Of a DNA stretch of 64,000 nucleotides, positions 34,849 to 48,272 are shown one piece after another. How positions within the stretch are numbered: the stretch's first letter is position 1; each line of letters starts with the position of its first letter. The notes under the pieces are model-generated. The model was given only the letters and a program-made list of their open reading frames with translations. It was not told the origin of the DNA and searched no databases. Location of the stretch: IMG/VR virus record IMGVR_UViG_3300048033_000857, positions 1 through 64,000 of that record, one strand, 5' to 3'. Position numbers and translations under genes: made by a program. Origin of the DNA: a virus.

Positions 34849-35127
34849 ATGGCTAAAAAAGATCCATCCCACATATATGCAATACTAGCATACAGCAAAC
34901 AAGAAAACACAACCAAAAGAATTTTTGACGAGGACAGTTTACTTGCTCCGTATCAACACACCACACAGCTCAAGCTAGCAGAACAAAAGGCAATTGCATT
35001 TGCAGCACAACTAAATCAGCAGCGACACAAAGGAGCAACTGACTGGGTTGCTAGAACCGAACGTCAAGAATACAAACCTTCAGGACTAGTACGCGGTGCT
35101 CAAATCCGTAGACCAAAAATAGGCTAG
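34849..35127 (+). CDS. Small hypothetical protein (paralog of 31268-31525)
   Basis: Shared motif pattern; AAGGA RBS. Confidence 0.65.
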   Translation: MAKKDPSHIYAILAYSKQENTTKRIFDEDSLLAPYQHTTQLKLAEQKAIAFAAQLNQQRHKGATDWVARTERQEYKPSGLVRGAQIRRPKIG

Positions 35128-35143
35128 TAGTGTAAGTATACAC

Positions 35144-35830
35144 ATGCCCAAGAAACAAACAGCGTTCTATCAATACAGTTGCGAGCTGCAAATTGCTATC
35201 CCCCATCTTGCTTTTAGACAAGCAACAGAAATACACATGGAAAAAATGCTGCGTAGAAAAATCTCGCACACAAAAACTGTAGATTGTTTGCCCATGTGGT
35301 ATTACTTTTACTGTGTGGACATAGAAGATCCTCTTACTATAATGCAGCATCCCAATGATGATGTAGAGCTACATCCAGGACAGAATAGATTTATCGGACG
35401 CAGCATACGCGGCGATAAGCCTTGGGTTCCAGCTAGAATAATCTCAATTGGTCAAGAGTGGAAATATCATTTGAATGGCATTAGAGAAGTGCGCATGATG
35501 GACAACAGGACGTTTGAATACGAAACCAAAGAAGACTTTTATTCACAAGTAGATCTCTACACATGGAGTCACGGCAGTTATGCACCCACTCGCGGTGACT
35601 GGCTCACATATCCTGAGCGTTGGGCACAACAGCATCTAGGTGAATGGGGCGGAAAAATATATCTGCCCAACCGCAAGGTACATATTATAAATCGTCATGC
35701 TAAAAAATGGCTAGTAGAAGATGTGCGAACCCACCCAGGTCTTATGAGTGCTGTGCAAGAATTGTTTCGCAAACTCAAACAAAAGCAAGACAAATACCTA
35801 CGTAAAAGCCTCAAAGCTGCTAGAGATTAA
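35144..35830 (+). CDS. Hypothetical protein
   Basis: 228-aa ORF; TAAGTA 5 nt upstream; ELHPGQNR. Confidence 0.65.
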   Translation: MPKKQTAFYQYSCELQIAIPHLAFRQATEIHMEKMLRRKISHTKTVDCLPMWYYFYCVDIEDPLTIMQHPNDDVELHPGQNRFIGRSIRGDKPWVPARIISIGQEWKYHLNGIREVRMMDNRTFEYETKEDFYSQVDLYTWSHGSYAPTRGDWLTYPERWAQQHLGEWGGKIYLPNRKVHIINRHAKKWLVEDVRTHPGLMSAVQELFRKLKQKQDKYLRKSLKAARD

Positions 35831-35996
35831 CTTTGCCCACTACAACGATACACAACACACATATAAAAAAAGAAATCCACTAACCATAACGACAGATACA
35901 TTGCATAGCCCTGCAACACCCCGTAAATAACGATTTACAAAAAGATGGTAGTTTATACTCAACCCACTAGTGTAAAACAGCACTAGCCCACACAAG

Positions 35997-36071
35997 CCGC
36001 AGAGCGGTCCGCGCAAATTCTAGACAGCCGCGAAGCGGTAAACGCTTTTTGCAAAATTTTTAGCGTTTACC
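35997..36071. repeat. Cluster of GC-rich hairpins between convergent genes
   Basis: CCGC-AGA-GCGG, CCGC-GAA-GCGG and GGTAAACGCT..AGCGTTTACC. Confidence 0.6.
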
Positions 36072-36081
36072 TAAAACAAGC

Positions 36082-36297
36082 TCAATCAATGCACACGGGT
36101 GTAAAGCTAGTGCTGTCCGATAGTATCAACAAGCCTATGATTCTATCTCTATCCGATTCAAACACAATACGCGATGCGCTTGATTGTGATGTATGGATGC
36201 CTCTTAAGAATAGTTCTACTGTAGCACAGTATGTGATTGACTCTTTTAGTATAGTAGATGTTGGTTCTGGATTGTATACTAGTTTGACTTCATACAT
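36082..36297 (-). CDS. Hypothetical protein
   Basis: 71-aa ORF downstream of a structured leader. Confidence 0.5.
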   Translation of the reverse strand: MYEVKLVYNPEPTSTILKESITYCATVELFLRGIHTSQSSASRIVFESDRDRIIGLLILSDSTSFTPVCID

Positions 36298-36316
36298 ATA
36301 TAAGACTCTTTAATAA

Positions 36317-36418
36317 AGTGTATGCACAGTGCGGTCAGCTAGTCTGCTGAGTGTATATAGCGTATAACGCATATCTGTTGACATGTGTTCAAACTGTGAT
36401 GCGCACTGTGCATACACT
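36317..36418 (-). ncRNA. Candidate structured RNA or 5' leader (17-bp closing stem with internal hairpins)
   Basis: AGTGTATGCACAGTGCG / CGCACTGTGCATACACT perfect inverted repeat; minus-strand TAAGTA at 36421-26 immediately upstream. Confidence 0.45.
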
Positions 36419-36740
36419 ATTACTTATATTAGAGCTAGCGTGGTTCCACAGTTAAGAGGTTCTGTTTTACATACACTAGAGCTAAAGCTCTAACACGCTA
36501 CGCTAGTTCGCTTGCGTGTGTTTGCTTCGCTTTACTGTGTAGCGTAAGTTAGGTCCGAAATGGGTCCTGCAGGGTAAAAATTTTGCTGCGCAGTTTTTTT
36601 AGGTGAAGTACTTACAGAAGTGGGGTGGTGATTTTGCCTCTGTACGTTTTTAAATCATTAAGCGCAGCTAAGTTGTTGTTTTTAAAAGTCTTTTATACCC
36701 CACCGTACCCCCGACGCCTCGAGAAAAATTTTTTTTTTTG

Positions 36741-36774
36741 AAAAAGAAAAAAGACAAGTGTTGCCACTTGCCTT
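36741..36774 (-). terminator. Intrinsic terminator ending the early module
   Basis: Minus strand AAGGCAAGUG-GCAA-CACUUGUCUU followed by a U-tract. Confidence 0.75.
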
Positions 36775-36821
36775 TCTCTTACATGCAGATCTGAGCCTGC
36801 CGTCTACACTCTTATTGTTCT

Positions 36822-37166
36822 CTAGTCTAGTCTGCTACCTGCGTAGGCTTTGTCAAAGCCATACTTCTTAAGCACATCAGCTGCTGCTCTAGCACCTGCT
36901 TCTAGTGTGTCCACGTTCTGTGTAGGATACTTACTAGGGTTCCATATCTGGTAAGCGCCGTTGTAGGCTTTGTTAATACCTGCTTGTTTCATAGCACGAC
37001 CCAACTTGGTGTTGCCTTTAATGCCGAAGATGTCTACCCAAGCAAAGCCACAAGCACCCCAGCCACCATTGGGGAAGTGTGTGTTCTCAAAAGCATCAGC
37101 TGCTTCATATGCTGCTTCAGTTGCTTCACGTAGTGCTTGCTTGATTGTGTTTACTGTAATGTCCAT
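36822..37166 (-). CDS. Early hypothetical protein
   Basis: WGACGFAWV; own promoter and GAGGGC RBS. Confidence 0.75.
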   Translation of the reverse strand: MDITVNTIKQALREATEAAYEAADAFENTHFPNGGWGACGFAWVDIFGIKGNTKLGRAMKQAGINKAYNGAYQIWNPSKYPTQNVDTLEAGARAAADVLKKYGFDKAYAGSRLD

Positions 37167-37221
37167 AGTGTTTAGCCCTCTTGCTATGTTTAACTTACTC
37201 TATTAGTATAGCATCTATATG

Positions 37222-37401
37222 CTATGTGTCAACCCCTAATGGCTCTGCTTCAACACTTGCTTCTGCCATTTCAAACATTGCATACAGCATGTCAATGCAC
37301 TTGGCTTCGTTCTTCATGCTCAATGGCAGCTCACGGATCAGTTCTTCTACTGTGTCTAGTGTTGTGTCCAATTGCTCAAGTGTGTGTGCTACAGTCTTCA
37401 T
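37222..37401 (-). CDS. 59-aa acidic early protein (not in ORF track)
   Basis: MKTVAHTLEQLDTTLDTVEELIRELP...; AGGAG RBS. Confidence 0.65.
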   Translation of the reverse strand: MKTVAHTLEQLDTTLDTVEELIRELPLSMKNEAKCIDMLYAMFEMAEASVEAEPLGVDT

Positions 37402-37411
37402 AGTGTTCTCC

Positions 37412-37687
37412 TTAGTACAGTTCGTATACAGTTGGTGCGTTTAGATTGTTTGCGTTACAGTATGCTTCAAGCTCACGGCATACTGTAGCTAGGAAGCGAT
37501 ACTTGCGCTGTGCTTCTGCGTTAGATATCTCTCCATCACAGTGCAAGTTCTCTGGCGATAGTTTGCTGTCCAGTGTACGTGCCAAGTCATTCACTTGAGT
37601 CTGGCTCAGTGGAAATGTCATTGGAGCTGTGTTGAAGAATGCGATCCAACGGTTGTTGTCATCGATGAAGTTCTTTAGGTTTTGCAT
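37412..37687 (-). CDS. Early hypothetical protein
   Basis: LSPENLHCDGE motif; promoter and GAGGGC RBS. Confidence 0.75.
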   Translation of the reverse strand: MQNLKNFIDDNNRWIAFFNTAPMTFPLSQTQVNDLARTLDSKLSPENLHCDGEISNAEAQRKYRFLATVCRELEAYCNANNLNAPTVYELY

Positions 37688-37770
37688 GTGTTTGCCCTCT
37701 ATTGCTTAACTGTTATATACAGTATATGATCAATTAGAGGATATGTCAACCCCTAATTGCAAAAAAGATC

Positions 37771-37977
37771 AAAAAAAAGCCCTAGCATTGGACGAGGGCA
37801 CATCCTGCTAGGGCTTAGTCTAGGAAGCAGAGCGTGAGGGCATACGCTGTTCCACTACCTTAGTTACCTTGCAGCTCTAATGGGCTGCTTCGGTGTACAC
37901 ACACTCGGACGAGGGCTGTCCTCCTGTGTGTTCGAACTAGCACGAGGGCACATGCTAGTTCTACAGTATGCGGAGCT
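37771..37977 (-). ncRNA. Candidate small RNA with four GCCCUC-displaying hairpins ending in an intrinsic terminator
   Basis: Plus-strand GAGGGC at 37794, 37836, 37911, 37944, each centred in a stem; G-U pairs and a U8 tail work on the minus strand. Confidence 0.7.
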
Positions 37978-38979
37978 CTATGCTCGACGCATCACTGTAT
38001 TCTCTGCCATTGCTTCCCACTTGGTAGGGAACGCTTCGGCTAAGTCTGCTACCTTGAGCACTGTACGCAAGCTCAGTTCGCGCAGACGATTTTTATTAAT
38101 ATCTACAAAGTCCATGATGTCCTCTTTGACTTCATCATCAATCTTGCGATCGTCTAACATACCATCCGACACCACTTGCTTGATGCGCAGTACTTTGTCC
38201 TTGTCCGTATCGATAGTCAAGTCCATGTAGTGGCAACGGCTCTCTAGCGCACTCAAGTGCTCACGCAGTTTGCCTTTGACTTTGTCGAACTTCAAGTTGG
38301 TAATGAAGATCGCACTTGCTTCGAACTTAAACTTGTCCGGCACACCTTCGTTGCGCAATTTGAAGCTGTCGGTGTTCCAATGGATCCAACGATTCTTCTT
38401 TGAGTCTAGTGCTGCTTTCAAAATATTAAGGCTTAGATCATCTTGGAAGATGCTGTCACAGTCATCGAACACAACAACCTTGCCTTTGTCTGCCATGTTA
38501 AACAGTTTGCAGTAGAGTCCAATTGGGCTCATCGCACCTTTGATCACTTCGTGTGTCTTGCCTGCACCCAGTGTCTCCATCATAGCATAGCGTTCTAGTA
38601 CTTCTTCTACACCGTGGCTCTTGCCTACACCCGGAGGGCCGCTAACGATCATTGCTCGAACGCTGCCTTTCTTGACGGCTTTGGTCATATCTTTGAGCAT
38701 GTCAAACCGTTCGCGGATGCGCTCTACAATCTCAGCGTCTGACTCTTCGCGTTCGGTTGTCTCGACATTTGCTCCAACCTGCTCGTAACCCTCCGGGCCA
38801 GCAACCTTGATCTTGATGTTGCGATCCGGAAACCCATTTACTGCCGCGCCGTCGACAGTTACGTAACCTCCTCGAGCTCCTACTTTGAAACCTTCTACTA
38901 GTGGAAAGACCATGCCTGTCATGTCTACATCTTTACCACGAATCTTATATGTGCCTTCTGTAATTCTAACGTTTGTCAT
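37978..38979 (-). CDS. AAA+/P-loop ATPase, early
   Basis: Walker A GPPGVGKS, Walker B VVVFDDCD, LKAALD, IFITN, ALESR. Confidence 0.85.
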   Translation of the reverse strand: MTNVRITEGTYKIRGKDVDMTGMVFPLVEGFKVGARGGYVTVDGAAVNGFPDRNIKIKVAGPEGYEQVGANVETTEREESDAEIVERIRERFDMLKDMTKAVKKGSVRAMIVSGPPGVGKSHGVEEVLERYAMMETLGAGKTHEVIKGAMSPIGLYCKLFNMADKGKVVVFDDCDSIFQDDLSLNILKAALDSKKNRWIHWNTDSFKLRNEGVPDKFKFEASAIFITNLKFDKVKGKLREHLSALESRCHYMDLTIDTDKDKVLRIKQVVSDGMLDDRKIDDEVKEDIMDFVDINKNRLRELSLRTVLKVADLAEAFPTKWEAMAENTVMRRA

Positions 38980-39018
38980 ATCGCCCTCTTTGTTTCTAAC
39001 TATACGTATACTATACTA

Positions 39019-39183
39019 TCAGTTTCGAATCCTGTCAACCAAAGATTCGTCTGTTTGTTCAACAATTAATTTAGCACCAGAGTTGATTTGGCTGCGAGCA
39101 AAGTCACTCAGCTGCTGAGTCTGCTCAGGGAATGTGGTCATTGCAGCCACACCAATCACGATACCAATTGCTAGTTTGATCAT
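39019..39183 (-). CDS. Small protein with N-terminal hydrophobic segment
   Basis: Start MIKLAIGIVIGVAAM after GGAGGAG. Confidence 0.6.
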   Translation of the reverse strand: MIKLAIGIVIGVAAMTTFPEQTQQLSDFARSQINSGAKLIVEQTDESLVDRIRN

Positions 39184-39184
39184 C

Positions 39185-39526
39185 TTAAAACTCCTCCGGA
39201 TAACCACGTGTAACTGAGTTACCACGCTTGGGCGACACTACCATCACCTGCTCTTTGAGGAAGTCACGATAGTCTGCATCGTCTGGCAGCTTGCTGATCC
39301 ACTCAGCTTCTGACTGCCACTCTACTGGAAACTCCTTAGCACCAATGCCATTCTCCATTGCAATTGCTGCAACGAACGCAACAGCATCCTGGATGCGATC
39401 CAAGTCCTGGACTAGGTAGTCACTGCCACCCTTCATCTTCCAGTATGCATTGCCTGAGGAGAACTTACCGTCCTCGCAGTGTGCGCCGTAGTTTTCAAGG
39501 AACTGTGTTGTGATTACGAAATTCAT
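39185..39526 (-). CDS. Early hypothetical protein
   Basis: TQFLENYGAH..YWKMKGG; GAGGG RBS. Confidence 0.72.
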   Translation of the reverse strand: MNFVITTQFLENYGAHCEDGKFSSGNAYWKMKGGSDYLVQDLDRIQDAVAFVAAIAMENGIGAKEFPVEWQSEAEWISKLPDDADYRDFLKEQVMVVSPKRGNSVTRGYPEEF

Positions 39527-39573
39527 TTGCAAACCCTCTTGCTGTTGCCCTAACTGTTATATACAGTATATGA

Positions 39574-39849
39574 TCACTTGCGCTCGATGTCAACCTTTTT
39601 CTGCATGAATTTGGAAATTAATTCCATGTCAGCTTCGGAGAAGTCGTTGCGGCCTGTGCCAAATGGAGCACCATAATGAGTGAGTGCATTGCCTACATGG
39701 CTTAGATCGTTGAGTGTACGCAAGCCGTTATCCGTTACACCTTTGAGTCCGTGGATCTTACCGTACTCTTCGGAGAAGTCCATCATCTCGCGTCCAATGG
39801 AGATCAGTTTGCGTTCTTGTGCTGTTGCTTCGTAGAATGATTGTGCCAT
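39574..39849 (-). CDS. Early hypothetical protein
   Basis: Start MAQSFY after GAGGGC and a promoter. Confidence 0.7.
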   Translation of the reverse strand: MAQSFYEATAQERKLISIGREMMDFSEEYGKIHGLKGVTDNGLRTLNDLSHVGNALTHYGAPFGTGRNDFSEADMELISKFMQKKVDIERK

Positions 39850-39956
39850 GTTTGCCCTCGTTTGTTTAATTGTTATATACAGTATACGCTCACTTAGAAC
39901 GTTTGTCAACCCCTAATTTGGGAGTCCGCTCCAATCATCACATGGATCATCATACA

Positions 39957-40244
39957 TTATGCTGGCTCCTCTTCACCAAAGGTTGCATCATCTAACTCGG
40001 CCAACTCTTCTACTTCACGACCTTCTGCGAACAACAACAACTCTACAGCCAACATCCGTGCTTGGTGCTTGGTCAACTCTATGTGATTGTGAAAGCCATC
40101 TGATGTAGTAGGTTTCTGGAAGCCTCGTGGTTTGCGTTGAGTTATCTGTATGCAAGTCAATCGATCCTTGCCACCCCAGAAGCGAGTCTGAGTCAATTCG
40201 TTCTGTGCTACACAGTCTGGGACGTTTCTTAATTCTGTTGACAT
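39957..40244 (-). CDS. Early hypothetical protein
   Basis: TRFWGG.DR..C.Q.T; promoter and GGAGGGC. Confidence 0.7.
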   Translation of the reverse strand: MSTELRNVPDCVAQNELTQTRFWGGKDRLTCIQITQRKPRGFQKPTTSDGFHNHIELTKHQARMLAVELLLFAEGREVEELAELDDATFGEEEPA

Positions 40245-40315
40245 TTGGATTGCCCTCCTAATTTCTAACTATACATACAGTATATGATCTAAAGTTGAGT
40301 TTGTCAACCCCTAAT

Positions 40316-40513
40316 TTAATCTAAATCACATTCCCACACATCATTGCGGAACTGTGCTCGCAGCGCACCTAGCGGATAGTCTGCGTGTTCGAACAGCATG
40401 TAAGGTGCACCATCATAGTCCAACTTGATTGTGTGTACAGTGACTTCGTCCATTGGCAACCACTTTGGTGCTTCGATGCTTCCGTTGTATGCTGAGTTGA
40501 ATACTTTGATCAT
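40316..40513 (-). CDS. Early hypothetical protein
   Basis: Promoter and GGAGGGC RBS. Confidence 0.65.
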   Translation of the reverse strand: MIKVFNSAYNGSIEAPKWLPMDEVTVHTIKLDYDGAPYMLFEHADYPLGALRAQFRNDVWECDLD

Positions 40514-40584
40514 TGGATGCCCTCCATTGCTTCTAACTATACATACACTATAGCACAGGATTCTTTACCTGTCAACCGAAAAAG

Positions 40585-40652
40585 TACGGGGAGGAGCAAT
40601 TAATTCTCCTACGATGAGGGCGGTCGCTTAGAGTATGCTACCACTCCCCGTA
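40585..40652 (-). ncRNA. 68-nt structured element 3' of tRNA-Leu with a GCCCUC loop
   Basis: 9-bp closing stem TACGGGGAG/CTCCCCGTA; internal CGACC-GCCCTC-ATCG and GGAG..CTCC hairpins; U-tract follows on the minus strand. Confidence 0.5.
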
Positions 40653-40655
40653 TTC

Positions 40656-40739
40656 TGGTGCCGCCACCGAGACTCGAACTCGGACGCCATAAGCGAGGGA
40701 TTTTAAGTCCCTTGTGTCTACCTATTCCACCATGGCGGC
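40656..40739 (-). tRNA. tRNA-Leu(UAA)
   Basis: GCCGCCA/TGGCGGC acceptor, anticodon loop CTTAAAA, long variable arm, GTTCGA, encoded CCA. Confidence 0.93.
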
Positions 40740-40844
40740 TTATGTCCACGCCAACCCCGGGCAAATCTATTAATAGTCCCAGAGCCTGACAGTCGCTATG
40801 TGATCTCCTACCTCAGCGTAATCGGTAAGGAACGCTGTCGTTGT

Positions 40845-40921
40845 TGGCCTGCCCTGCAGGATTCGAACCTGCGACCCACAGCTTAGAAGGCTGTTGCTCT
40901 ATCCAGCTGAGCTAAGGGCAG
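40845..40921 (-). tRNA. tRNA-Arg(UCU)
   Basis: CTGCCCT/AGGGCAG acceptor, loop CTTCTAA, GGTTCGAATCC, CCA. Confidence 0.93.
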
Positions 40922-40926
40922 TTATT

Positions 40927-41003
40927 TGGTGGGCCCTCCGAGACTCGAACTCGGAACCTACGGATTATGAGTCCGGTGCTCTAACCAATTGAGCTAAGAG
41001 CCC
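40927..41003 (-). tRNA. tRNA with CAU anticodon, probably Ile2 (lysidine type)
   Basis: GGGCTCTTAGCTCAATTGGTTAGAGCA..CTCATAA..GTTCGAGTC..CCA; lacks the initiator C1:A72 mismatch and GGG/CCC anticodon stem. Confidence 0.85.
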
Positions 41004-41011
41004 TTAGGATC

Positions 41012-41182
41012 TTACGATCCTGAAAAAGCAAACTCCTCTTGTATATCAGATTCAAACTGAGCAACCTTTTGCTCTGCTTCTTCGATCATGCCTAGCAAGA
41101 TAACATCTGCTAGGTCTGTGTTGTTGTGTATAATGCGGCGAACGCCTTCAAGTCTTTCGATCAGTTGTAGTTGGTCTACCAT
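41012..41182 (-). CDS. 56-aa early protein (not in ORF track)
   Basis: MVDQLQLIERLEGVRR...; promoter at 41237 and GAGGG RBS. Confidence 0.6.
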   Translation of the reverse strand: MVDQLQLIERLEGVRRIIHNNTDLADVILLGMIEEAEQKVAQFESDIQEEFAFSGS

Positions 41183-41251
41183 TCTGTTTCCCTCTTCGTT
41201 TCAACTTATATACAGTATGCACTCGAAAGCGCATACTGTCAACCATTATTT

Positions 41252-41734
41252 TTAGATATCGTAGCCTTGTGCCTTCAAGCGAGCCACTTCAAGTGTTACC
41301 TGAGTCTCCAAGTCGTCGAAGATTGGAAAGCCGTTTGCATCGTTGCCTACGTTATAACGATCGTGTACAATCCAACCTGCTGCGGTGTGCAGGTAAAAGT
41401 ATTCGCATCCGCTGTCTGTGTAGTATTCAACCATCTCCTGCACAGTGTCAAACTCTTGTGCGTCTACACGAGTCTCGCCACGGTCACGTCCGTAAAATAC
41501 AGTAACGCCTTCTTCCGGAGTGTCAAAGCTGTGTCCGCTGCCTGGCATTGGAAAAATTTCTTCTGCCATGTAGCTCTGATCGCCTAGCTCTACCATCTGC
41601 GCAATCTTGCGAGCCTGTTGGTAGTGCTCTTGCAGCGTACGGCCTGCGCCTACTACATAGCCATCATAGTGTGAATATTTTGCACGGATCTTGCCTTCTG
41701 GTGTTTTGTAACCAATTGCAGCTCTAGTTCCCAT
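41252..41734 (-). CDS. Early phage protein (MGTR..IG / H.DGY family)
   Basis: MGTRAAIG, YSHYDGY, YGRDRGE, EYFYL. Confidence 0.78.
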   Translation of the reverse strand: MGTRAAIGYKTPEGKIRAKYSHYDGYVVGAGRTLQEHYQQARKIAQMVELGDQSYMAEEIFPMPGSGHSFDTPEEGVTVFYGRDRGETRVDAQEFDTVQEMVEYYTDSGCEYFYLHTAAGWIVHDRYNVGNDANGFPIFDDLETQVTLEVARLKAQGYDI

Positions 41735-41780
41735 TGTAGTACCCTCTTTGCTAATTTATATATACACTATAACACAGCTC

Positions 41781-41990
41781 TTAGACTGTGTCAACCTCTT
41801 TTTCATACATTTCTACAGTTTCTTCAAACTGCTCTGCAAGCGAACGCAAGCTCATCATCGCAAACTCTTCTGTGATGCTGCCCGCTTCTGCTTCGTCTAG
41901 TGTCCGGATGCGTTCTGCCATCATCTCTGCGATTGCTTTATAGCTGCCACATTCACGTGCTGTCTTCATGCTGTGATCAATAAATGTCAT
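41781..41990 (-). CDS. Early hypothetical protein
   Basis: Promoter and GAGGGC RBS. Confidence 0.65.
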   Translation of the reverse strand: MTFIDHSMKTARECGSYKAIAEMMAERIRTLDEAEAGSITEEFAMMSLRSLAEQFEETVEMYEKEVDTV

Positions 41991-42053
41991 TGTGTTGCCC
42001 TCTTTGCTAATTTATATATACAGTATATGATCTAACTGCGGGGTTGTCAACCC

Positions 42054-42332
42054 CTAATTTGCATATTCACGATTCTTTTTGAGCTGCCACTTCTCTAGCA
42101 CAGGCAAGCCAAACTCGTCCTCGTCTACGCAGACATATGCCACAGTCTTCTTGACAATACCGTAACGGTAGCCTCGCATGCCGCACACGCCTTCGCCGCC
42201 TACCCAAACCTTGTGTGGGAAGTCTTCGCACATGCTGATCGGATCGTCGTTGACACTATACTCGAAATAGTTGCCGGTGTCCCGCTCTACGAAACAACCT
42301 ATTGGATCTTTGGTGTGTGTCCAGTATGCCAT
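42054..42332 (-). CDS. Early hypothetical protein
   Basis: G.F.E...GN.FEY, KKTVAY...DEDE.G; coupled to the upstream stop codon. Confidence 0.7.
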   Translation of the reverse strand: MAYWTHTKDPIGCFVERDTGNYFEYSVNDDPISMCEDFPHKVWVGGEGVCGMRGYRYGIVKKTVAYVCVDEDEFGLPVLEKWQLKKNREYAN

Positions 42333-42439
42333 TACTTGTGCCCTTTCAACAGTGCGTGAATCAGTTTGGCTTCTTTGCCTTTGATGCGAGGATCTTTTTT
42401 GATCGCTTCATCTACTGCTTTCTTGTTGTAAGTTGCCAT
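42332..42439 (-). CDS. 35-aa basic microprotein (not in ORF track)
   Basis: MATYNKKAVDEAIKKDPRIKGKEAKLIHALLKGHK*; promoter at 42495 and GGAGGGC. Confidence 0.65.
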   Translation of the reverse strand: MATYNKKAVDEAIKKDPRIKGKEAKLIHALLKGHK

Positions 42440-42496
42440 TGGAGCCCTCCGTTTGCCTAACTGTTAATAATACTATAACACCGAAGGGCTCACTTG

Positions 42497-42670
42497 TCAA
42501 CCTTTTTCTGCGATTTTTCTTCCGATCATGCTGAGTAGTAGACTGCGAGCAAGATCAACACGACCACAATCGATCTGACGCAACACTGCTTCAAGACTCT
42601 CCTGACTGGTGTCATAGCCACCTGCGTTAGGTTCAACTGCCCACAGCATAGGGTTCTCTGGTTTACTCAT
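42497..42670 (-). CDS. Early hypothetical protein
   Basis: Start MSKPEN overlapping the end of the upstream gene. Confidence 0.55.
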   Translation of the reverse strand: MSKPENPMLWAVEPNAGGYDTSQESLEAVLRQIDCGRVDLARSLLLSMIGRKIAEKG

Positions 42671-43208
42671 CTGCCATTTCTTCTTCTTTCCACATCTCGA
42701 AGTTCTCAACCAGAGCATACTCTTCGTCTAGGCGATTAAACAAGTCCGAACGCTCGTCTTCTGGCAGCTCGCATTGCTCTGTGAGGTTGTCGCAGTATTC
42801 GTCGCCACCTTCGCTATGCCAAAAGCCTGCAAAGTCCATACCAGGCTCGTGATAACTTGCCTGGATGTCACAGTTATCCATATCGTCACAGAACTGCTCG
42901 TAAGCACCAATAGGCGGAGCCCATGCACTGTCAAACCAACCAGTGATCTCGGCTGTTCCGTCTTCGTTGTCGATATACTCCAATCCTTCGTCGGAGACAT
43001 CCCACTTGGTGCCCCAACTGTTGACTCGCCACGAATACCAATCTGGACCGTCTGGGTTAGGAGCAGTTGTGCCTTCTAGCTCTTTAGGCATAGGCGCCAT
43101 TGCATTGAGTAGACCAAAGTCCTCGCCTACGTGAGCATCGTCCCACAGTTGCTTGATGGTCTCAGTTGGACCGGAGATTGTGATTGAGTTGTTGCACCAA
43201 TTTGGCAT
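42663..43208 (-). CDS. DUF1281/YubB ferredoxin-like family protein
   Basis: MPNWCNN, WYSWRVNSWGTKWD, FDSAWAPP, Y.EPG.DF.G. Confidence 0.78.
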   Translation of the reverse strand: MPNWCNNSITISGPTETIKQLWDDAHVGEDFGLLNAMAPMPKELEGTTAPNPDGPDWYSWRVNSWGTKWDVSDEGLEYIDNEDGTAEITGWFDSAWAPPIGAYEQFCDDMDNCDIQASYHEPGMDFAGFWHSEGGDEYCDNLTEQCELPEDERSDLFNRLDEEYALVENFEMWKEEEMADE

Positions 43209-43222
43209 AGTAGTTCTCCCTC

Positions 43223-43405
43223 TTAGTATTCGTCGATTAAAAATGCGTCTTCGTCTTCCTGGAAGCGTTCGGAAAGCTCGTTTGCGTCTAGCATGTCTTC
43301 AACTTCGTCTGTTGACATATACTTGAGTGCCATAGTCAGCATGTCTTCTGCTGATACTAGGCCTTCTTCTACCAATGCTAGTGCTGCGTCTCTTGAATCA
43401 AACAT
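43223..43405 (-). CDS. Small acidic early protein
   Basis: LKYMSTDEVEDMLDANEL; promoter and GAGGGC. Confidence 0.7.
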   Translation of the reverse strand: MFDSRDAALALVEEGLVSAEDMLTMALKYMSTDEVEDMLDANELSERFQEDEDAFLIDEY

Positions 43406-43556
43406 ATTGTTGCCCTCTTTTGTTTAACTTATACATACACTATAGCACGGGTGTATGCAGTTGTCAACCCCTAAATTAAACTTTTTTAAAGTGTGTTACA
43501 GCGGGGCCTGCGGGTGTGCGCACTATAGCACAGTGTGCGCTATAGTGCAAGTTTTT

Positions 43557-43829
43557 TTAACTTTCGTATTTTACTCCTACTAAGCGCAAATAGCGTCCTC
43601 CAAATGTAGTATGCACTTTGTCACATCCTACTAGCAGCTTTAACCATTTGCAGTCACCTTCTGTAAAACGTTCTCCTACAATACCAAAGCACAAGTTGCG
43701 TTTAGCTGCATCCTTAGCATTGTCTTTCCAAACTACGTTAGTCCAACTGTTCCAAAAACTAGCATTCTTTTCTGCTAGTACAGTTGCAACCAATTTACGT
43801 GCTTGTTTAGTGTTTAGTTCATAGCGCAT
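43557..43829 (-). CDS. Early hypothetical protein (GA/GG-free zone)
   Basis: Start MRYELN after GGAGGGC; no Pro. Confidence 0.68.
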   Translation of the reverse strand: MRYELNTKQARKLVATVLAEKNASFWNSWTNVVWKDNAKDAAKRNLCFGIVGERFTEGDCKWLKLLVGCDKVHTTFGGRYLRLVGVKYES

Positions 43830-43905
43830 ATAAAGCCCTCCATATGCTGTTACGTTATACAAGCACTATAGCATAAACTACAGTGCTTGTCAAGTGTTTT
43901 TTAAA

Positions 43906-44259
43906 TTATGTTTCTAAGCTAGCAACTCCGTCGTCTTGCATGCCTTGCTCCGTAAATGTTACGTCAAAGCCTAGCGCAACACTTATGCTCTCCTCAAAGC
44001 CATCGTCTGTGTATATGCGCCAATCGCCTGTGCCGTTTGCGTTGTGCTCCACATAAATCATTGTGCTAGTGTCGCCATCCTCATATGTCATCTCATGTAC
44101 TTCCACAGCACTAACACCTACACGCAAGTCACCTGCATATCCCCATATGCTGCTGCCGTTGCACTCCGCAAAGCCGTTTGCGTCCCAACGTGTTACAACA
44201 CAGCTATAGTCTTCGTCTGCGTGTGTTGTACGTGTTGTTTTGTTTTTTAATGTAAGCAT
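43906..44259 (-). CDS. Acidic early hypothetical protein (GA/GG-free zone)
   Basis: Start MLTLKN after GAGGGC; IYTDDGFE...FTEQGMQ; no Pro. Confidence 0.72.
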   Translation of the reverse strand: MLTLKNKTTRTTHADEDYSCVVTRWDANGFAECNGSSIWGYAGDLRVGVSAVEVHEMTYEDGDTSTMIYVEHNANGTGDWRIYTDDGFEESISVALGFDVTFTEQGMQDDGVASLET

Positions 44260-44351
44260 AGTTTGCCCTCTTTGCTTTGTTAACTTATACATACACTATA
44301 GCACAAGTGTGCGCTGCTGTCAACTAAAAAATGCTAACAGCAGCAACTTTT

Positions 44352-44702
44352 TTATGCAGCAAGCGCACTAGTATACTTTGCATAGTTGTTGCGTAGTTTA
44401 GCATACTGCGGATAAGCTGCGTCTGCTTGCTGCTGTAGCTTAAACAATAGCACACTGTTAGCACTAGTGCATGTGTAGTTGGGATAGCTTTTAGCTAAGT
44501 GTATAAACTGTTTAGCGGGCACACTTGTTAGCTGCACTGTGCTTGCATGCACACGGTAGTCGCTTGCTATGCTTGCGTTAGCAAACAAATACATAGTTAC
44601 GTTTAGCATGTTAGTGTTTTTGTTTACGCTTTTAACTAGTGCTAAACGCTGTGTGTTTTTATAGTTTACTAGTACTACGCTGTTACGTTTAATGTTTTGC
44701 AT
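44352..44702 (-). CDS. Basic early hypothetical protein
   Basis: Start MQNIKR after AGAGGGC; no Glu, Gly or Trp. Confidence 0.65.
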   Translation of the reverse strand: MQNIKRNSVVLVNYKNTQRLALVKSVNKNTNMLNVTMYLFANASIASDYRVHASTVQLTSVPAKQFIHLAKSYPNYTCTSANSVLLFKLQQQADAAYPQYAKLRNNYAKYTSALAA

Positions 44703-44794
44703 ATTATAGCCCTCTATGCTGTTAACGTTATATAAACAATATAGCACAAGCAGCGCACTTTGTAAAGTAAAAAATGCGCTGCTGTGTAAGTTTT

Positions 44795-45058
44795 TTATGC
44801 TAGTGCTTCAAATGCTTCATCTATTATATTATGCGCACTTGCGTCACTTGCAAAGCCCTCTTCTTCTGCAAAATCTATGCTGCTGCTACACATAATAACG
44901 TCTGTAAGCACATTAACGTTATGTGTTAAAAACACTTGCACAAGTGCGTCTGCTGTTTGTACGTCTGTTGCTACAACTGTGTTATTTACAGTTACAACAA
45001 TTGCAGCGTTGCAAGCGTTTAAAAATACGTTGTTTGTTTTTGTAGTTGTGTTTTGCAT
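44795..45058 (-). CDS. Early hypothetical protein
   Basis: Start MQNTTT; CSSSIDFAEEEGF. Confidence 0.68.
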   Translation of the reverse strand: MQNTTTKTNNVFLNACNAAIVVTVNNTVVATDVQTADALVQVFLTHNVNVLTDVIMCSSSIDFAEEEGFASDASAHNIIDEAFEALA

Positions 45059-45138
45059 ATTATAGCCCTCTATGCTTGTTAACTTATACATACACTATAG
45101 CATTAAAAGTGTAGTTTGTAAAGAGAAAAGTTTTGTTT

Positions 45139-45180
45139 AAAAACAAGCACTTAGCATTTTTCTTGTAAGTGCTTGTTTTT
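45139..45180. repeat. Inverted repeat made of two IHF-like sites (possible terminator)
   Basis: AAAAACAAGCACTTA ... TAAGTGCTTGTTTTT. Confidence 0.6.
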
Positions 45181-45185
45181 GTTAG

Positions 45186-45353
45186 TTAAATTTCCTCTAA
45201 GCAGCGTTCTACTGTGTCTACTACAACGTAAGCGTCTGCTGCTGCGTTAAGCAGTACTAGTGCTTTTTGTGCTTCTTCAAATGTAGCAAAAGCACTAGCA
45301 ACGCCTGTTGTTAAGTTACAAATAAAGTACGGAAAGTTTACAACGTTTTGCAT
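45186..45353 (-). CDS. 55-aa early protein (not in ORF track)
   Basis: MQNVVNFPYFICNLTTGVASAFATFEEAQKAL...; same leader as its two neighbours. Confidence 0.62.
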   Translation of the reverse strand: MQNVVNFPYFICNLTTGVASAFATFEEAQKALVLLNAAADAYVVVDTVERCLEEI

Positions 45354-45498
45354 ATTATACCCTCTATGCTGTTTAAGTTATACATACACTATAGCACAAA
45401 CGGACACAGCTGTCAACTACTAAATGCATTTAAACGAACAAAAGAACCCTTTGTTTTCAATAGGTTAGCACCTAAAGATTCCTAACGATATCAAACGG

Positions 45499-45831
45499 TT
45501 ACATGCTCCAGTATGTCTCGCTGCTAGGTGACATGTAGTTGGGTGTGTTAACTGGCTCCATAAACTCTTTGCCACCAAACCCCTCTAGCACACGGCGCAG
45601 CACTTTCTTCTCTATAGTAGTGTGGAAATAGTCTGCCTCTGCTATACCATAACGGAACACAGCATGATTCGGATCAGTCTTCAACAACCCCTCTGCCTTT
45701 GCAATTCGAGTGACTGCTGCCTTCGCTGCTGCCATTGTCTTGTAGCTGCAACGGTGATCCGGACGAGCAATACCTGTGCGATCTGGCTTGCCAATAATGT
45801 AGGTTGAAGTCTTTTCATATACGTAGTACAT
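45499..45831 (-). CDS. Early hypothetical protein
   Basis: YKTMAAAKAAVTR, NTPNYMSPSSETYWSM; promoter and GAGGGC. Confidence 0.75.
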   Translation of the reverse strand: MYYVYEKTSTYIIGKPDRTGIARPDHRCSYKTMAAAKAAVTRIAKAEGLLKTDPNHAVFRYGIAEADYFHTTIEKKVLRRVLEGFGGKEFMEPVNTPNYMSPSSETYWSM

Positions 45832-45879
45832 AGTAGTGCCCTCTTTGTTTCTAACTTATACATACACTATACAGTCATA

Positions 45880-46047
45880 CTAGCACCTTGTCAACCGATA
45901 TTTTCGTTTGAGTTCACTAAAATTCCCTCTCACATACTCATCGAACGTATACGGCTGAGTCTGACGCCATGCTTCCCATTCATCTCGGTTCTCCCAATAC
46001 TGAGTCCACAGATAGGCACGAAAAGGTTTCAATTTAAATTTATTCAT
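45880..46047 (-). CDS. Small hypothetical protein
   Basis: Start MNKFKL after GAGGAG; promoter at 46077-46105. Confidence 0.6.
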   Translation of the reverse strand: MNKFKLKPFRAYLWTQYWENRDEWEAWRQTQPYTFDEYVRGNFSELKRKYRLTRC

Positions 46048-46109
46048 CAGTTTCTCCTCTACACTGTAGTATATATAGTATACAACCAAACGACACCTTT
46101 GTCAAGACC

Positions 46110-46804
46110 ACAAGCAGCGGGGCCTATAGTATGTTCGAACTGCTCTATAGTGTATAGTTCATCCTATACACGCACTCGACACTATAAGTCATTGATATCA
46201 TTACACTATACACTATAGTAGAGTCACAGTGCGTGTATAGTGTGTATAGTGTGTATAGTGTGTATATAGAGGCCTCTGGCCGAACGGTAGTAAGTGTTTG
46301 AATAATAAGGGAATTATATACACACTCAAAACCGGCCTACAGCAGCGGGGCCTAGTAGGATCTAGAGTGGATTTATGGTAGAGATGGTTCAGGTTTTGGA
46401 TGAATTGGTGTGAATAAACCATTGATTTTTATACACTTTGGTGTACAATAACGCTAGGTTTTTATACACCATCTCGCGGTGACGAGAGGCATAGTTTAAA
46501 TACTTTTCGACCCATTTCTGTACGTCTAATATCTGTATGTTTTTGTACACCCTGTTAGATTATTCACGCATAATGCACACACAACCTAGCAGCGGGGCCT
46601 CTACACTAGCATGAGAGTGTGCAGCCACGCTCGCACAAGTGTCTCACTCTACTATAGTGTATAGTGTGTATAGTGCGCTACTGCTACTACTACTACTACT
46701 ACTGTAGTCTATAGTGTATAGCGTATATGCGTTAACCGTAGTGTATAGTTCGAACTCATCTATATACGTGCGCATGTATAGTGTGTGATCTAGCAGCGGG
46801 GTCT
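46110..46804. repeat. Non-coding repeat block: 4x GCAGCGGGG(C/T)CT, GTGTATAGT tandem, (CTA)n, IHF-consensus sites
   Basis: Motif at 46115, 46343, 46590, 46794; 9-mer tandem at 46233-46266; CTA run at ~46685-46702. Confidence 0.8.
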
Positions 46805-47026
46805 TTATCGATATTTGTCTGCTGGATTATCACACACTGTACTATCTGATTGTTCGCACAGTTTAAATGTAAGAGCTTTGCGTGGACCACGGGTTGTGTT
46901 TAGTGTGACTTCTCCACTCTTTTCATGAAACTCTATCTTAGTTATAGTTGCACGATCATTGTTAGGACCTACTAATATCTCTTGTCCTAGCTCTAGATTT
47001 AGATTGATAGTTCTCAGTGTTGCCAT
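46805..47026 (-). CDS. Small hypothetical protein
   Basis: AAGGAG RBS; minus-strand TAAATA near 47053. Confidence 0.68.
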   Translation of the reverse strand: MATLRTINLNLELGQEILVGPNNDRATITKIEFHEKSGEVTLNTTRGPRKALTFKLCEQSDSTVCDNPADKYR

Positions 47027-47071
47027 GGGAAGTCTCCTTGTTTACTACTAATATTTATTGACACATTCAGC

Positions 47072-47099
47072 TTGACAATCTAAATCTAGACACTATAAT
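47072..47099 (+). promoter_or_regulatory. sigma70 promoter
   Basis: TTGACA(47072-77)-16-TATAAT(47094-99); AAGGAG downstream. Confidence 0.75.
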
Positions 47100-47122
47100 A
47101 AGTAGTACAAAGGAGTGGATAT

Positions 47123-47404
47123 ATGTATGAATCGATCAATGATGTTGTAGAGGGCACAAGTGTTGCTTGTAAGTTTCGAGTGGAGACTATGTTGGATACC
47201 CTAGGTCGTCCGGCACCAAATCTTTCGGACACGCCCTTGGCAGGGGTTGGAGTCTATGAGAGCTTGGGCGTTATTATGCAGCGTGATCATGCTCAGGGTG
47301 TGGTCAAGCTAGAAGACACAGCAAGCAAACGTCAGTTTGTTGTGGAGTATGCCAACATATGGGACATCGATGACGTTGAGTGGCAGGACCCATTGGATGG
47401 CTAG
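47123..47404 (+). CDS. Hypothetical protein
   Basis: Promoter and RBS. Confidence 0.68.
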   Translation: MYESINDVVEGTSVACKFRVETMLDTLGRPAPNLSDTPLAGVGVYESLGVIMQRDHAQGVVKLEDTASKRQFVVEYANIWDIDDVEWQDPLDG

Positions 47405-48272
47405 ACGTGTTGAAATACACACTGATAGCTCTTGCGTAGAGTTTGAGTTGGCTGATACCTCAGCTGCAAACGCTTGGTTTGACTATGCACGTGATGTGGT
47501 TAGATACACCACCAACAGTTTTTATTGTACGCATGTGTGGAGAGAAGCAGCCACAAGTGCAGAGCAGACCAATTGGCAGCAGATCAAACGTTTGACACAG
47601 GAGCTAGACCATCACATTCAAACACTAGTACGTCACACAGGTCAAGACTATGCCAGTGTGAAGGCTGCAATTCGCAGTCTAGAGTCACAGCCCACACAAG
47701 CAGCCTGCAACACCATACACAGATTGTTTACCAGTGTGTGTCAATCAGGGCAATTAGCAGAGCACAACTCAGCTGACCTAGAACAGAGTGTACACGCTAT
47801 CAATGGTTGTGTACACGAGATAGAAGTCAGCTTTGGTCAACCCTTGCGTGAGCAATGGGATGGCAGAGTATTTCAAGTGTTGTTCACCGACGCACTCACA
47901 CGTGAAGGCGTGGACTTTAGTGTGTGGAACACCAGCCTTAGACATCAACAGTTTGATCATCGCACTCAAAACACTGACTATGATGTGTGGCTCAATGACG
48001 ACATATTGGGCAAAGATCTACCCAGATGTTTTCTTGATCAAGATGACCCTTGCGAATCAGACATCACAGGCAATCAGTTTCTAACACCCAGCCTTTATTT
48101 CGATCTAGATCGACACTATCATCGTATAGTAACAAGCCCAGAGTTTAACACATGGCTGGACGATACCAAGTGTGGCAAAACACTAGACAGATGGCCCTTG
48201 GGCACCATTACTAACATAACACAACTGCCTGAGGAATACACTCAGGTCTTGGAGTATAAATTTTATGACTGA
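47397..48272 (+). CDS. Hypothetical protein
   Basis: Likely start MARRVE; N.IHR.F, IN..VH.IE, ILGKD....F.DQD. Confidence 0.65.
   Translation: MARRVEIHTDSSCVEFELADTSAANAWFDYARDVVRYTTNSFYCTHVWREAATSAEQTNWQQIKRLTQELDHHIQTLVRHTGQDYASVKAAIRSLESQPTQAACNTIHRLFTSVCQSGQLAEHNSADLEQSVHAINGCVHEIEVSFGQPLREQWDGRVFQVLFTDALTREGVDFSVWNTSLRHQQFDHRTQNTDYDVWLNDDILGKDLPRCFLDQDDPCESDITGNQFLTPSLYFDLDRHYHRIVTSPEFNTWLDDTKCGKTLDRWPLGTITNITQLPEEYTQVLEYKFYD

Follow-up and report, generated by a model that had tools for sequence, protein, structure and literature searches.

Small RNAs (sRNAs) which carry a short C-rich motif in several loops, and which pair through it with the ribosome-binding sites of many mRNAs, are known from the Firmicutes, and a single-target precedent among phages is the c4 antisense RNA of P1 and P7 (Rfam RF01695), which blocks the ribosome-binding site of a phage gene and controls one operon (icd/ant) from the same transcript, upstream of its target. 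Here we describe a candidate anti-ribosome-site RNA in the DNA of an uncultured marine phage. The window that was analysed is a stretch of 64,000 nucleotides (nt), namely the first 64 kb of one open-ended contig of 83,337 bp (IMG/VR record IMGVR_UViG_3300048033_000857; G+C 38.6%). On its minus strand, at positions 37771-37985 behind the gene of an AAA+ ATPase, lies an array of hairpins whose loops present the motif GCCCUC, and the ribosome-binding sites of small promoter-proximal genes on the same strand carry the exact complement, GAGGGC. In our judgement it is likely that the element is a multivalent anti-ribosome-site RNA at the 3' end of early transcripts, and that its loops pair with the early sites.

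The closest known architecture is that of the cuckoo/CcsR1-4 RNAs (RSs0680, NfeR) of Alphaproteobacteria, which are described (PMC4615179, PMC8034643) as two to four adjacent hairpins with one anti-Shine-Dalgarno-like motif per loop and highly variable stems, co-transcribed as the 3' untranslated region (UTR) of an upstream protein gene, ending in a Rho-independent terminator, varying in the number of modules, and processed by RNase E, which frees the mature sRNAs from the 3' UTR. This arrangement of hairpins is shared by the phage element, which has four motif hairpins here and one to five in relatives, variable and co-varying stems, an origin as a 3' UTR behind a protein gene, a terminator at its end, and a module number that varies among relatives. 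The element nevertheless stands outside that family. The cuckoo/CcsR loop motif is CCUCCUCCC, whereas the phage loops carry GCCCUC or, in sister clades, UUCGCUCC, UGGCUCC or a CU-rich sequence; the upstream gene there is a DUF1127 gene of Alphaproteobacteria, whereas here it is an AAA+ ATPase gene on a phage contig; and the apparent targets here, unlike those of cuckoo/CcsR, are the phage's own promoter-proximal genes, recognized through a private, co-evolving extension of the ribosome site.

Other described systems share single features with the element. In the icaR message of Staphylococcus aureus (PMC3868564), a C-rich motif in the 3' UTR pairs with the Shine-Dalgarno (SD) region, blocks initiation and creates a substrate for RNase III. 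The likeness is that the ATPase site GAGGGCG and the GCCCUC loops lie on one predicted transcript, which is a likeness in complementarity only; the difference is that icaR has a single motif that acts on its own message, whereas the phage element displays as many as five looped copies and its ~14-19 candidate targets belong to separate transcripts. The motifs of RNAIII and RsaE, UCCC or CCCC, match the generic G-rich SD sequence of the host, whereas the loop here matches a non-generic extension found in one gene class. RNAIII and RsaE/RoxS are named as C-rich-loop sRNAs of Firmicutes in PMC4615179. A functional analogy is offered by phage T4, in which RegB cuts GGAG in early SD sites and RegA competes with the ribosome on ~30 mRNAs (PMC3014915). 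Both cases would have a phage factor that recognizes the initiation regions of a whole early class and switches them off, but RegB and RegA are proteins, while here the agent would be an RNA whose specificity comes from base pairing with a private tag. The c4 RNA, unlike the element here, is not known to have a multi-loop array or a class-wide tag.

Membership in a known RNA family was considered and rejected, because Rfam 15 yields only tRNAs or sub-threshold matches; the families compared include the Betaproteobacteria toxic sRNA RF02278, C4 RF01695, RsaE and 6C. At the gathering threshold, the whole window gave three tRNAs only, as did ARAGORN, and 11 related loci likewise gave only tRNAs. 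For positions 37600-38100 at E <= 10, the best match was suhB/mmgR RF00519, with 21.7 bits against a threshold of 41, and the others scored 12.9-21.2 bits; neither the RNAIII/RsaE-type families nor RF01695 matched this region at that cut-off.

The structure predicted by RNAfold for the element, together with a second and smaller element elsewhere on the same strand, comprises the following features.

37771-37985, minus strand: whole putative anti-ribosome-site RNA element, six hairpins and a U8 tail
37973-37985, minus strand: hairpin 0, GAGC-AUAGA-GCUC, contains the ATPase stop codon UAG (37980-37978), without the motif here
37934-37961, minus strand: hairpin 1, 11-bp stem, loop UGCCCU, motif at 37949-37944
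37897-37931, minus strand: hairpin 2, outer 7-bp stem and inner GGAC/GUCC (37921-37907), loop AGCCCUC, motif at 37916-37911
37866-37894, minus strand: hairpin 3, without the motif, loop region CCAUUAGA
37820-37863, minus strand: hairpin 4, inner part 37848-37831, loop AUGCCCUC, motif at 37841-37836
37771-37816, minus strand: hairpin 5, the terminator, long stem 37816-37777, inner GGAUG/CGUCC, loop UGCCCU, motif at 37799-37794, U8 at 37778-37771
40586-40651, minus strand: a further element with one loop, directly behind tRNA-Leu, outer stem of 9 bp, inner hairpin with loop CCGCCCUCA and the motif at 40621-40616, then a U-rich tail

On the minus strand, positions 37765-37985 fold with a minimum free energy (MFE) of -86.6 kcal/mol and z = -4.40, and none of 200 shuffled sequences is equally stable; the plus-strand fold of the same region has z = -2.50 and is equalled by 5 of 200. 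The CCCU core is unpaired in all four motif hairpins, and an earlier note on this DNA, made from the sequence alone, had correctly located these four hairpins and their common motif. Its placement of the element within the 3' region of the ATPase gene was mistaken: the ATPase open reading frame (ORF) ends at 37978, so the element is an intergenic 3' UTR of the ATPase gene or operon, and hairpin 0 is the only hairpin that overlaps the stop codon. In many relatives (numbered with L below; e.g. L001, L022, L039) the loop of hairpin 0 itself holds GCCCUC. The final ~20 nt of the ATPase reading frame (ACUGUGAUGCG..; window 37978-37995) also pair long-range with post-stop sequence in many relatives, and because this stem spans the stop codon, a terminating ribosome would open the first hairpin. 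Hairpin 3 has counterparts only in the nearest relatives (L001, L004, L040, L059), and might serve as a second seed or bind a protein. The 3' arm of hairpin 4, ACGCUCUGC, is the part of the element whose sequence is most conserved across relatives. Hairpin 5 is a G+C-rich stem-loop with a U-tract directly behind it on the transcribed strand, as expected of an intrinsic terminator, and it sets the 3' end of the element; a simple terminator scanner omits it because its stem has an internal loop. The second element folds less distinctively (-28.3 kcal/mol, z -1.6, with 10 of 200 shuffles equally stable), and relatives have similar post-tRNA hairpins (L009:339, L023:4313, L026:5875, L014:3962) as well as GCCCUC loops in a few terminators. 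Two further copies of the motif within the window differ in kind: the minus-strand GCCCTC near 47152 does not lie in a stable hairpin, and that at 38634 belongs to Walker-A coding sequence, which is kept as such in relatives.

Conservation of the element was examined in 63 IMG/VR loci retrieved with the ATPase protein. One to five GCCCTC copies occur <=330 nt after the ATPase stop codon, on the same strand, in 49 of the 63, or in 50 if the displaced copy of L006 is included. That array sits ~720-870 nt further on, behind an inserted gene; the insert of ~700 nt (L006:2190-3100), which includes a possible gene on the opposite strand, separates the ATPase from a hairpin array that otherwise resembles that of L003. 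When 42 distinct regions were folded, 110 of 121 GCCCUC motifs were found within MFE hairpin loops, while shuffling the segments between the motifs left only 6-14 in loops (mean 9.05, 20 shuffles). Across relatives the loop sequences are invariant and the stems drift, and the drift is compensatory. In a set of 44 distinct hairpins of the UGCCCUCG (terminator) type, compared in a fixed register, 85.9% of the stem cells are paired, versus 65.3% when shuffled, and 47 cells are changed on both sides of the stem, versus 15.7; neither value was reached in any of 500 shuffles, and slid registers of the same hairpins give at most 47.7% pairing. This fixed-register set, together with per-sequence folds, replaced an alignment of a two-hairpin module (22 of 28 distinct sequences, with L007, L008, L012, L024, L029 and L039 excluded for length or architecture), for which the consensus from MAFFT and RNAalifold was poor (9 pairs, -3.08 kcal/mol) because loop sizes differ and registers were misaligned. 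A search of viral contigs for exact 15-mer matches to the conserved 3' arm was also left unused as unspecific: it returned 116 stretches, of which 25 have at least two motifs nearby and 91 have a lone motif, which by our own estimate is about the number expected by chance in a collection of that size.

The same comparisons identify the transcribed strand as the minus strand, because a U.G wobble beside the closing G-C pair is conserved (in 36 of the 44 hairpins, where the opposite strand would have a C.A mismatch) and because U-tracts follow the last hairpin, here the U8 at 37778-37771 and U-rich tails in many relatives, though not in all. The earlier note had used the G-U pairs and the U-tail to argue for a structure that works on the minus strand only, and in this it was borne out. 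An RNA read from the plus strand, with GAGGGC loops that act as a sponge for ribosomes or for a CsrA-type protein, was rejected: the plus strand has no promoter match within 37500-38200 and no T-run after a hairpin, and the U.G wobbles turn into C.A mismatches there.

The complement of the loop motif marks a particular class of genes. GCCCTC occurs 26 times in the window, compared to 8.98 ± 2.98 in shuffled sequences, none of which (0 of 100) reaches 26, and the copies that would serve as targets are placed as follows.

37166-45843, minus strand: proposed targets, GAGGGC 5-10 nt before the ATG of 14 leftward genes (motif and ORF positions)

The plus-strand positions of GCCCTC at these targets are 37175, 37694, 38983, 39854, 40252, 40519, 41997, 42444, 43412, 43835, 44265, 44709, 45065 and 45838, as the earlier note had listed them, and each does stand at this distance from the start of a minus-strand ORF. 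Five further genes of the region have GAGGGU or GAGGGA, and two more plus-strand copies of GCCCTC there are not ribosome sites (40933, inside tRNA-Met, and 44855, internal). The extension is specific to the strand: among ATG-ORFs of >=40 amino acids with an upstream GAGG, the next two bases are GC at 14 of 27 minus-strand starts versus 0 of 12 plus-strand starts. Among strict sigma-70-like promoter cassettes, GAGGGC occurs in 12 of 20 on the minus strand versus 0 of 7 on the plus strand, and GAGGG or AGGGC in 15 of 20 versus, again, 0 of 7. In both early leaders that were folded (n=2) the tag is unpaired. The short duplex UGCCCUC:GAGGGCA has a predicted energy of -12.0 kcal/mol, compared to -6.1 for the same site with an E. 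coli-type tail of 16S rRNA, a motif that may differ from that of the phage's own host. Only such short-duplex energies were used; duplexfold, applied to the entire element and the leaders, takes no account of intramolecular structure and produces unrealistically long duplexes, and its values (mean -23.5 kcal/mol for early leaders, -16.9 for 53 plus-strand leaders) were set aside. Promoter matches at 11 of 12 consensus positions number 16 on the minus strand within 10 kb (window 36000-47500), and a simple scan lists few terminators there; transcripts from several of these promoters probably enter the loop elements at 40586-40651 and 37771-37985. The target genes are read as temporally early because they are small and have strong sigma-70-like promoters.

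The evidence that bears most directly on pairing between loop and site is that the two change together between clades. A profile search added 80 more distant loci to the comparison. L185 and L186, whose ATPases are 68-69% identical, have both GCCCTC loops and GAGGGC sites, but among 74 loci with ATPase identity <=64% there is one with a single GCCCTC behind the gene and there are three with one or two GAGGGC..ATG. In the distant clades, hairpins at the equivalent genomic position present a different fixed loop. L234, L238, L249 and L260 have two loops CCG-AUUCGCUCC-CGG directly behind the ATPase gene, while L187-L210 and L236 have one such loop and a separate terminator ~600-930 nt further on, behind intervening coding sequence. 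The cassettes of these clades use GGAGCGA(A), the exact complement of the loop, in 74 of 170 cases in 23 distinct loci, and none uses GAGGGC. Thus GCCCUC is matched with GAGGGC and UUCGCUCC with GGAGCGAA, the site/loop pair of the second class being AGGAGCGAA/UUCGCUCC. Two additional pairs were found: a UGGCUCC loop accompanies GGAGCCA sites (L253, L256), and a large CU-rich apical loop with UCUCACUC and ACUCCU accompanies AGGAGUGAGA sites (L212, L213, L220-222, L226, L237). When loop class is tabulated against tag for 121 distinct loci, the table is diagonal among single-class loci, each of the four loop classes occurring only with its own complementary tag.

GCCCTC-only loops, 46 loci: own tag GAGGGC in 238 of 419 cassettes; the other three tags in 0
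TCGCTCC-only loops, 20 loci: own tag GGAGCGA in 67 of 149 cassettes; the others in 0
TGGCTCC-only loops, 3 loci: own tag GGAGCCA in 5 of 13 cassettes; the others in 0
TCTCACTC-only loops, 7 loci: own tag GAGTGAGA in 8 of 25 cassettes; the others in 0
No loop motif, 40 loci: 1 GAGGGC and 9 GGAGCGA among 125 cassettes

Five loci have two loop motifs. The tags found at four of these loci correspond to one or the other motif; in the fifth, L043, which has loop classes 3 and 4, none of the four tags occurs in 4 cassettes. Because complementary motifs change together, RNA-RNA pairing is the simplest account, and loop-to-site pairing is very probable on the strength of these sequence comparisons. This is also how the central proposal of the earlier note has fared. 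The idea at its centre, that the loops serve to pair with early-gene ribosome sites, is supported by loop/site co-variation between clades and by the compensatory changes in the stems, and the co-variation of loop and early site across relatives, which it had named as a check on that idea, is present. Its reading of the locus as that of an sRNA is supported in part, in the matter of probable pairing, but not in the placement of the element in coding sequence, in the matching of flanking bases beyond this window (see below), or in the label of jumbo phage, which is not established, the contig being 83 kb and open-ended and the relatives lying on contigs of 4.6-358 kb.

A quickly built ATPase tree places the GCCCUC/GAGGGC loci in a single clade (41 rows, support of 87 in the Shimodaira-Hasegawa-like approximate likelihood ratio test, SH-aLRT), nested among UUCGCUCC/GGAGCGA groups, and the link between ATPase and element is kept in all clades. 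Nine loci with 32-39% G+C (L206, L208, L209, L211, L214, L218, L219, L228, L252) make up the sister clade of the GCCCUC group; these have another gene directly behind the ATPase, with no loop array there and no enriched ribosome-site extension, and they may represent a loss of the loop/tag system. L033 is a degenerate case, with one GCCCUC loop and GAGGGC in just 1 of 9 cassettes. Its leaders (L033:3258-8600) have a conserved, hairpin-like GAGCGAAC..GCUC box and CUCC a few nt before the GGAG site, and this CUCC box may be a cis anti-SD. A further local arrangement is seen in L007:1902, L023:2842 and L030:2298, where GCCCTCC stands in the spacer between the -35 and -10 boxes and is complementary to the promoter's own GGAGGGC site, with a predicted stem of 13 bp; it would sequester the site only in read-through transcripts, not in those which start at that promoter.

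The features that flank the element in the window are the following.

37978-38979, minus strand: AAA+ ATPase gene, 333 amino acids (ORF list; Pfam AAA_16 and AAA; PHROG 1250, unknown function)
39038-39010, minus strand: the ATPase gene's own promoter (promoter-pattern match)
37721-37749, minus strand: next early promoter, TTGACA-17-TATACT, directly past the terminator (promoter-pattern match)

The ribosome site of the ATPase gene is GAGGGCG (38983-38988), and a matching early cassette begins less than ~100 nt past the terminator of the element. The stretch of ATPase coding sequence directly upstream of the element yielded no promoter-like site, the nearest minus-strand match being weak (9 of 12 positions, 38421-38392). 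The contig has the gene content of a phage (virion proteins and other structural genes, helicases, a tail fibre, an endolysin and a ribonucleotide reductase), and the public runs that contain the stretch are seawater, marine, estuary and viral metagenomes. No cultured relatives were found: a blastn search with 37400-38300 returned nothing from phage records, and the 1310 records matched by the ATPase protein are all <60% identical, in a collection that may lack the window's own record. In the early region, the plus strand of 43501-45000 is nearly devoid of GA (0, 2 and 0 per 500 nt) and of GG (5, 3 and 3), whereas neighbouring 500-nt bins of 35001-48000 mostly hold ~12-38 GA and 8-31 GG, with 8 in bins 37001 and 45001. 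The early mRNAs there are consequently almost without UC and CC. This scarcity far exceeds what would be needed to avoid internal anti-tag sequences, and one possibility is the avoidance of a nuclease or deaminase.

Several observations weigh against the reading of the element as a multivalent anti-ribosome-site RNA, or reduce the weight of the evidence for it. Because loop and tag are both nearly invariant inside the GCCCUC clade, the evidence of co-variation comes from a few switches between clades, at least three, rather than from many independent changes. The proportion of cassettes with the tag shows no dose relation to the number of loops (rho 0.15, p 0.37, 37 loci). The earlier note had also proposed that variants of the bases flanking the loop motif match variants of the leaders; such matching is seen in this window, but in 28 relatives the match of the seventh or flanking base of the loop to the leader shows no per-locus correlation (rho 0.19, -0.07, -0.08). 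The cassette counts in the table are not independent, because promoter-leader cassettes resemble each other within a genome, and the third and fourth pairs were identified post hoc, through the reverse complements of enriched 6-mers at ribosome sites. A strict test, which requires the motif to be fully unpaired in a hairpin loop, gives 16 of 28 in clade 2 versus 3 of 140 in shuffled sequences, but 0 of 5 and 0 of 6 for the third and fourth pairs; these fail because small 2-bp helices form inside their large apical loops. Of 42 regions, just 25 fold more stably on the sense strand than on the antisense strand, and the choice of 16S tail, mentioned above, bears on the energy comparison. Six metatranscriptome runs contained 6-9% of the sampled words, and the four that were examined (X15, X16, X18, X20) yield contigs, 88-99% alike, over parts of the ATPase gene, over the promoter cassette and, in X15, over 37799-37912 of the element; these contigs cannot give strand, ends or level, they may reflect carry-over of DNA, and the parts they leave uncovered are uninformative.

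The main rival explanation is a purely cis role, in which the 3' UTR pairs with the 5' leader site of its own transcript, as in icaR, or, in read-through transcripts, with the site of the gene that follows, which would thereby be insulated, so that there would be neither a diffusible regulator nor control of a whole class. This explanation predicts the same co-variation of loop and tag, and much about the locus suits it: the ATPase message bears both its GAGGGCG site and the loops, a matching early cassette follows within ~100 nt of the terminator, most clade-2 phages have a single loop, a cis pairing of GCCCUCC with GGAGGGC around a promoter is clearly used in some relatives, and icaR provides a precedent (PMC3868564). 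It is weakened by the valency of the element, since up to five loops exceed the need of one cis target, and by the next gene, which in 4 of 39 distinct loci is without GAGGG or AGGGC though one to four loops persist. Moreover, next genes are tagged no more often (26 of 39) than cassettes in general (222 of 381), the ATPase gene itself sometimes has a site without the tag (e.g. L032), and the second loop element stands behind a tRNA cluster, with no upstream coding leader to regulate. We therefore regard an exclusively cis function as unlikely.

The loops could instead bind a protein, the RNA being a sponge or an assembly platform for an RNA-binding protein of the phage or host, with complementarity to the ribosome sites only secondary. 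Repeated identical loops on variable stems are a hallmark of sponges such as CsrB/RsmZ, and the upstream ATPase gene is linked to the element in every clade; the CcsR RNAs are bound by a protein that is encoded upstream of them (PMC8034643). A sponge would not be expected to keep its loop the exact complement of the site through at least three clade-level switches, however, and no RNA-binding domain was found in the ATPase, for which Pfam and PHROG give AAA-type or unknown matches only, so that this explanation appears improbable. A protein that binds an asymmetric double-stranded GAGGGC/GCCCTC site in the DNA, at early leaders and, inverted, in the cluster behind the ATPase, would also account for co-variation, as a shift in its specificity would change all sites together, and the sites do lie just downstream of promoters. 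But this leaves unexplained why the motif is placed in hairpin loops, why the stems change in a compensatory manner and retain their U.G wobbles, why the orientation relative to the leader sites is constantly inverse, and why the leader sites have an SD core and an SD-like distance to the ATG; we consider it very improbable. The hairpins might, finally, be ordinary 3'-end stabilisers or terminators whose complementarity to ribosome sites has no function. The last hairpin is indeed a terminator, and stacked 3' hairpins can shield transcripts from exonucleases, but invariant loops on drifting stems, the placement of 110 of 121 motifs in loops, and a diagonal loop/tag table that would not be expected by chance together make this explanation scarcely credible.

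If the multivalent anti-ribosome-site RNA functions as we suppose, its mechanism would be as follows. The hairpins, four here and one to five in relatives, present GCCCUC in open loops, with the last hairpin doubling as an intrinsic terminator. The small promoter-proximal genes on the same strand are marked by a site that joins the short SD core GAGG to the private extension GC, often followed by A or U, with which the ordinary 16S tail would not pair. The loops would base-pair with this extended site over 6-7 bp, at about -10 to -12 kcal/mol, in competition with binding of the 30S subunit, and the duplex would possibly form a substrate for a double-strand-specific RNase. Since early promoters drive the RNA, its level would rise in the course of early transcription, and it would exert a delayed negative feedback on the translation of all early messages, that of the ATPase included. 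The physical pairing, repression as the sign of its effect, action in trans, and the release of a separate small RNA by processing are all presumed.

What is new in this system is the private ribosome-site code which co-evolves with the loop, in phages, since RNAs with anti-SD loops are already known; literature searches found no paper on these motifs or on a comparable phage RNA. Should the pairing prove functional, this would be the first case found of a virus that marks a temporal class of genes with its own ribosome-site code and controls that class by one multivalent RNA. A wider proposal can be offered only tentatively, namely that a large group of marine and freshwater uncultured phages run an RNA-only temporal switch, in which tagged immediate-early genes are silenced by an accumulating multivalent hairpin RNA, tag and loop drift together as an orthogonal code (of which at least four are seen), and the constantly adjacent AAA+ ATPase possibly loads or remodels the RNA, as CcaF1, likewise encoded upstream, does for CcsR. 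Such a switch, if it exists, would be the RNA counterpart of T4 RegA/RegB. Functional pairing would in any case explain the shut-off of early translation in phages without RegA/RegB-like proteins. The element would then provide a sequence signature for the early genes of uncultured phages, its loop motif predicting the early regulon, and a natural set of mutually orthogonal ribosome-site/anti-site pairs that would be useful in synthetic gene circuits. The four co-varying pairs make the idea testable by reporters in a laboratory strain, despite the uncultured state of the hosts.

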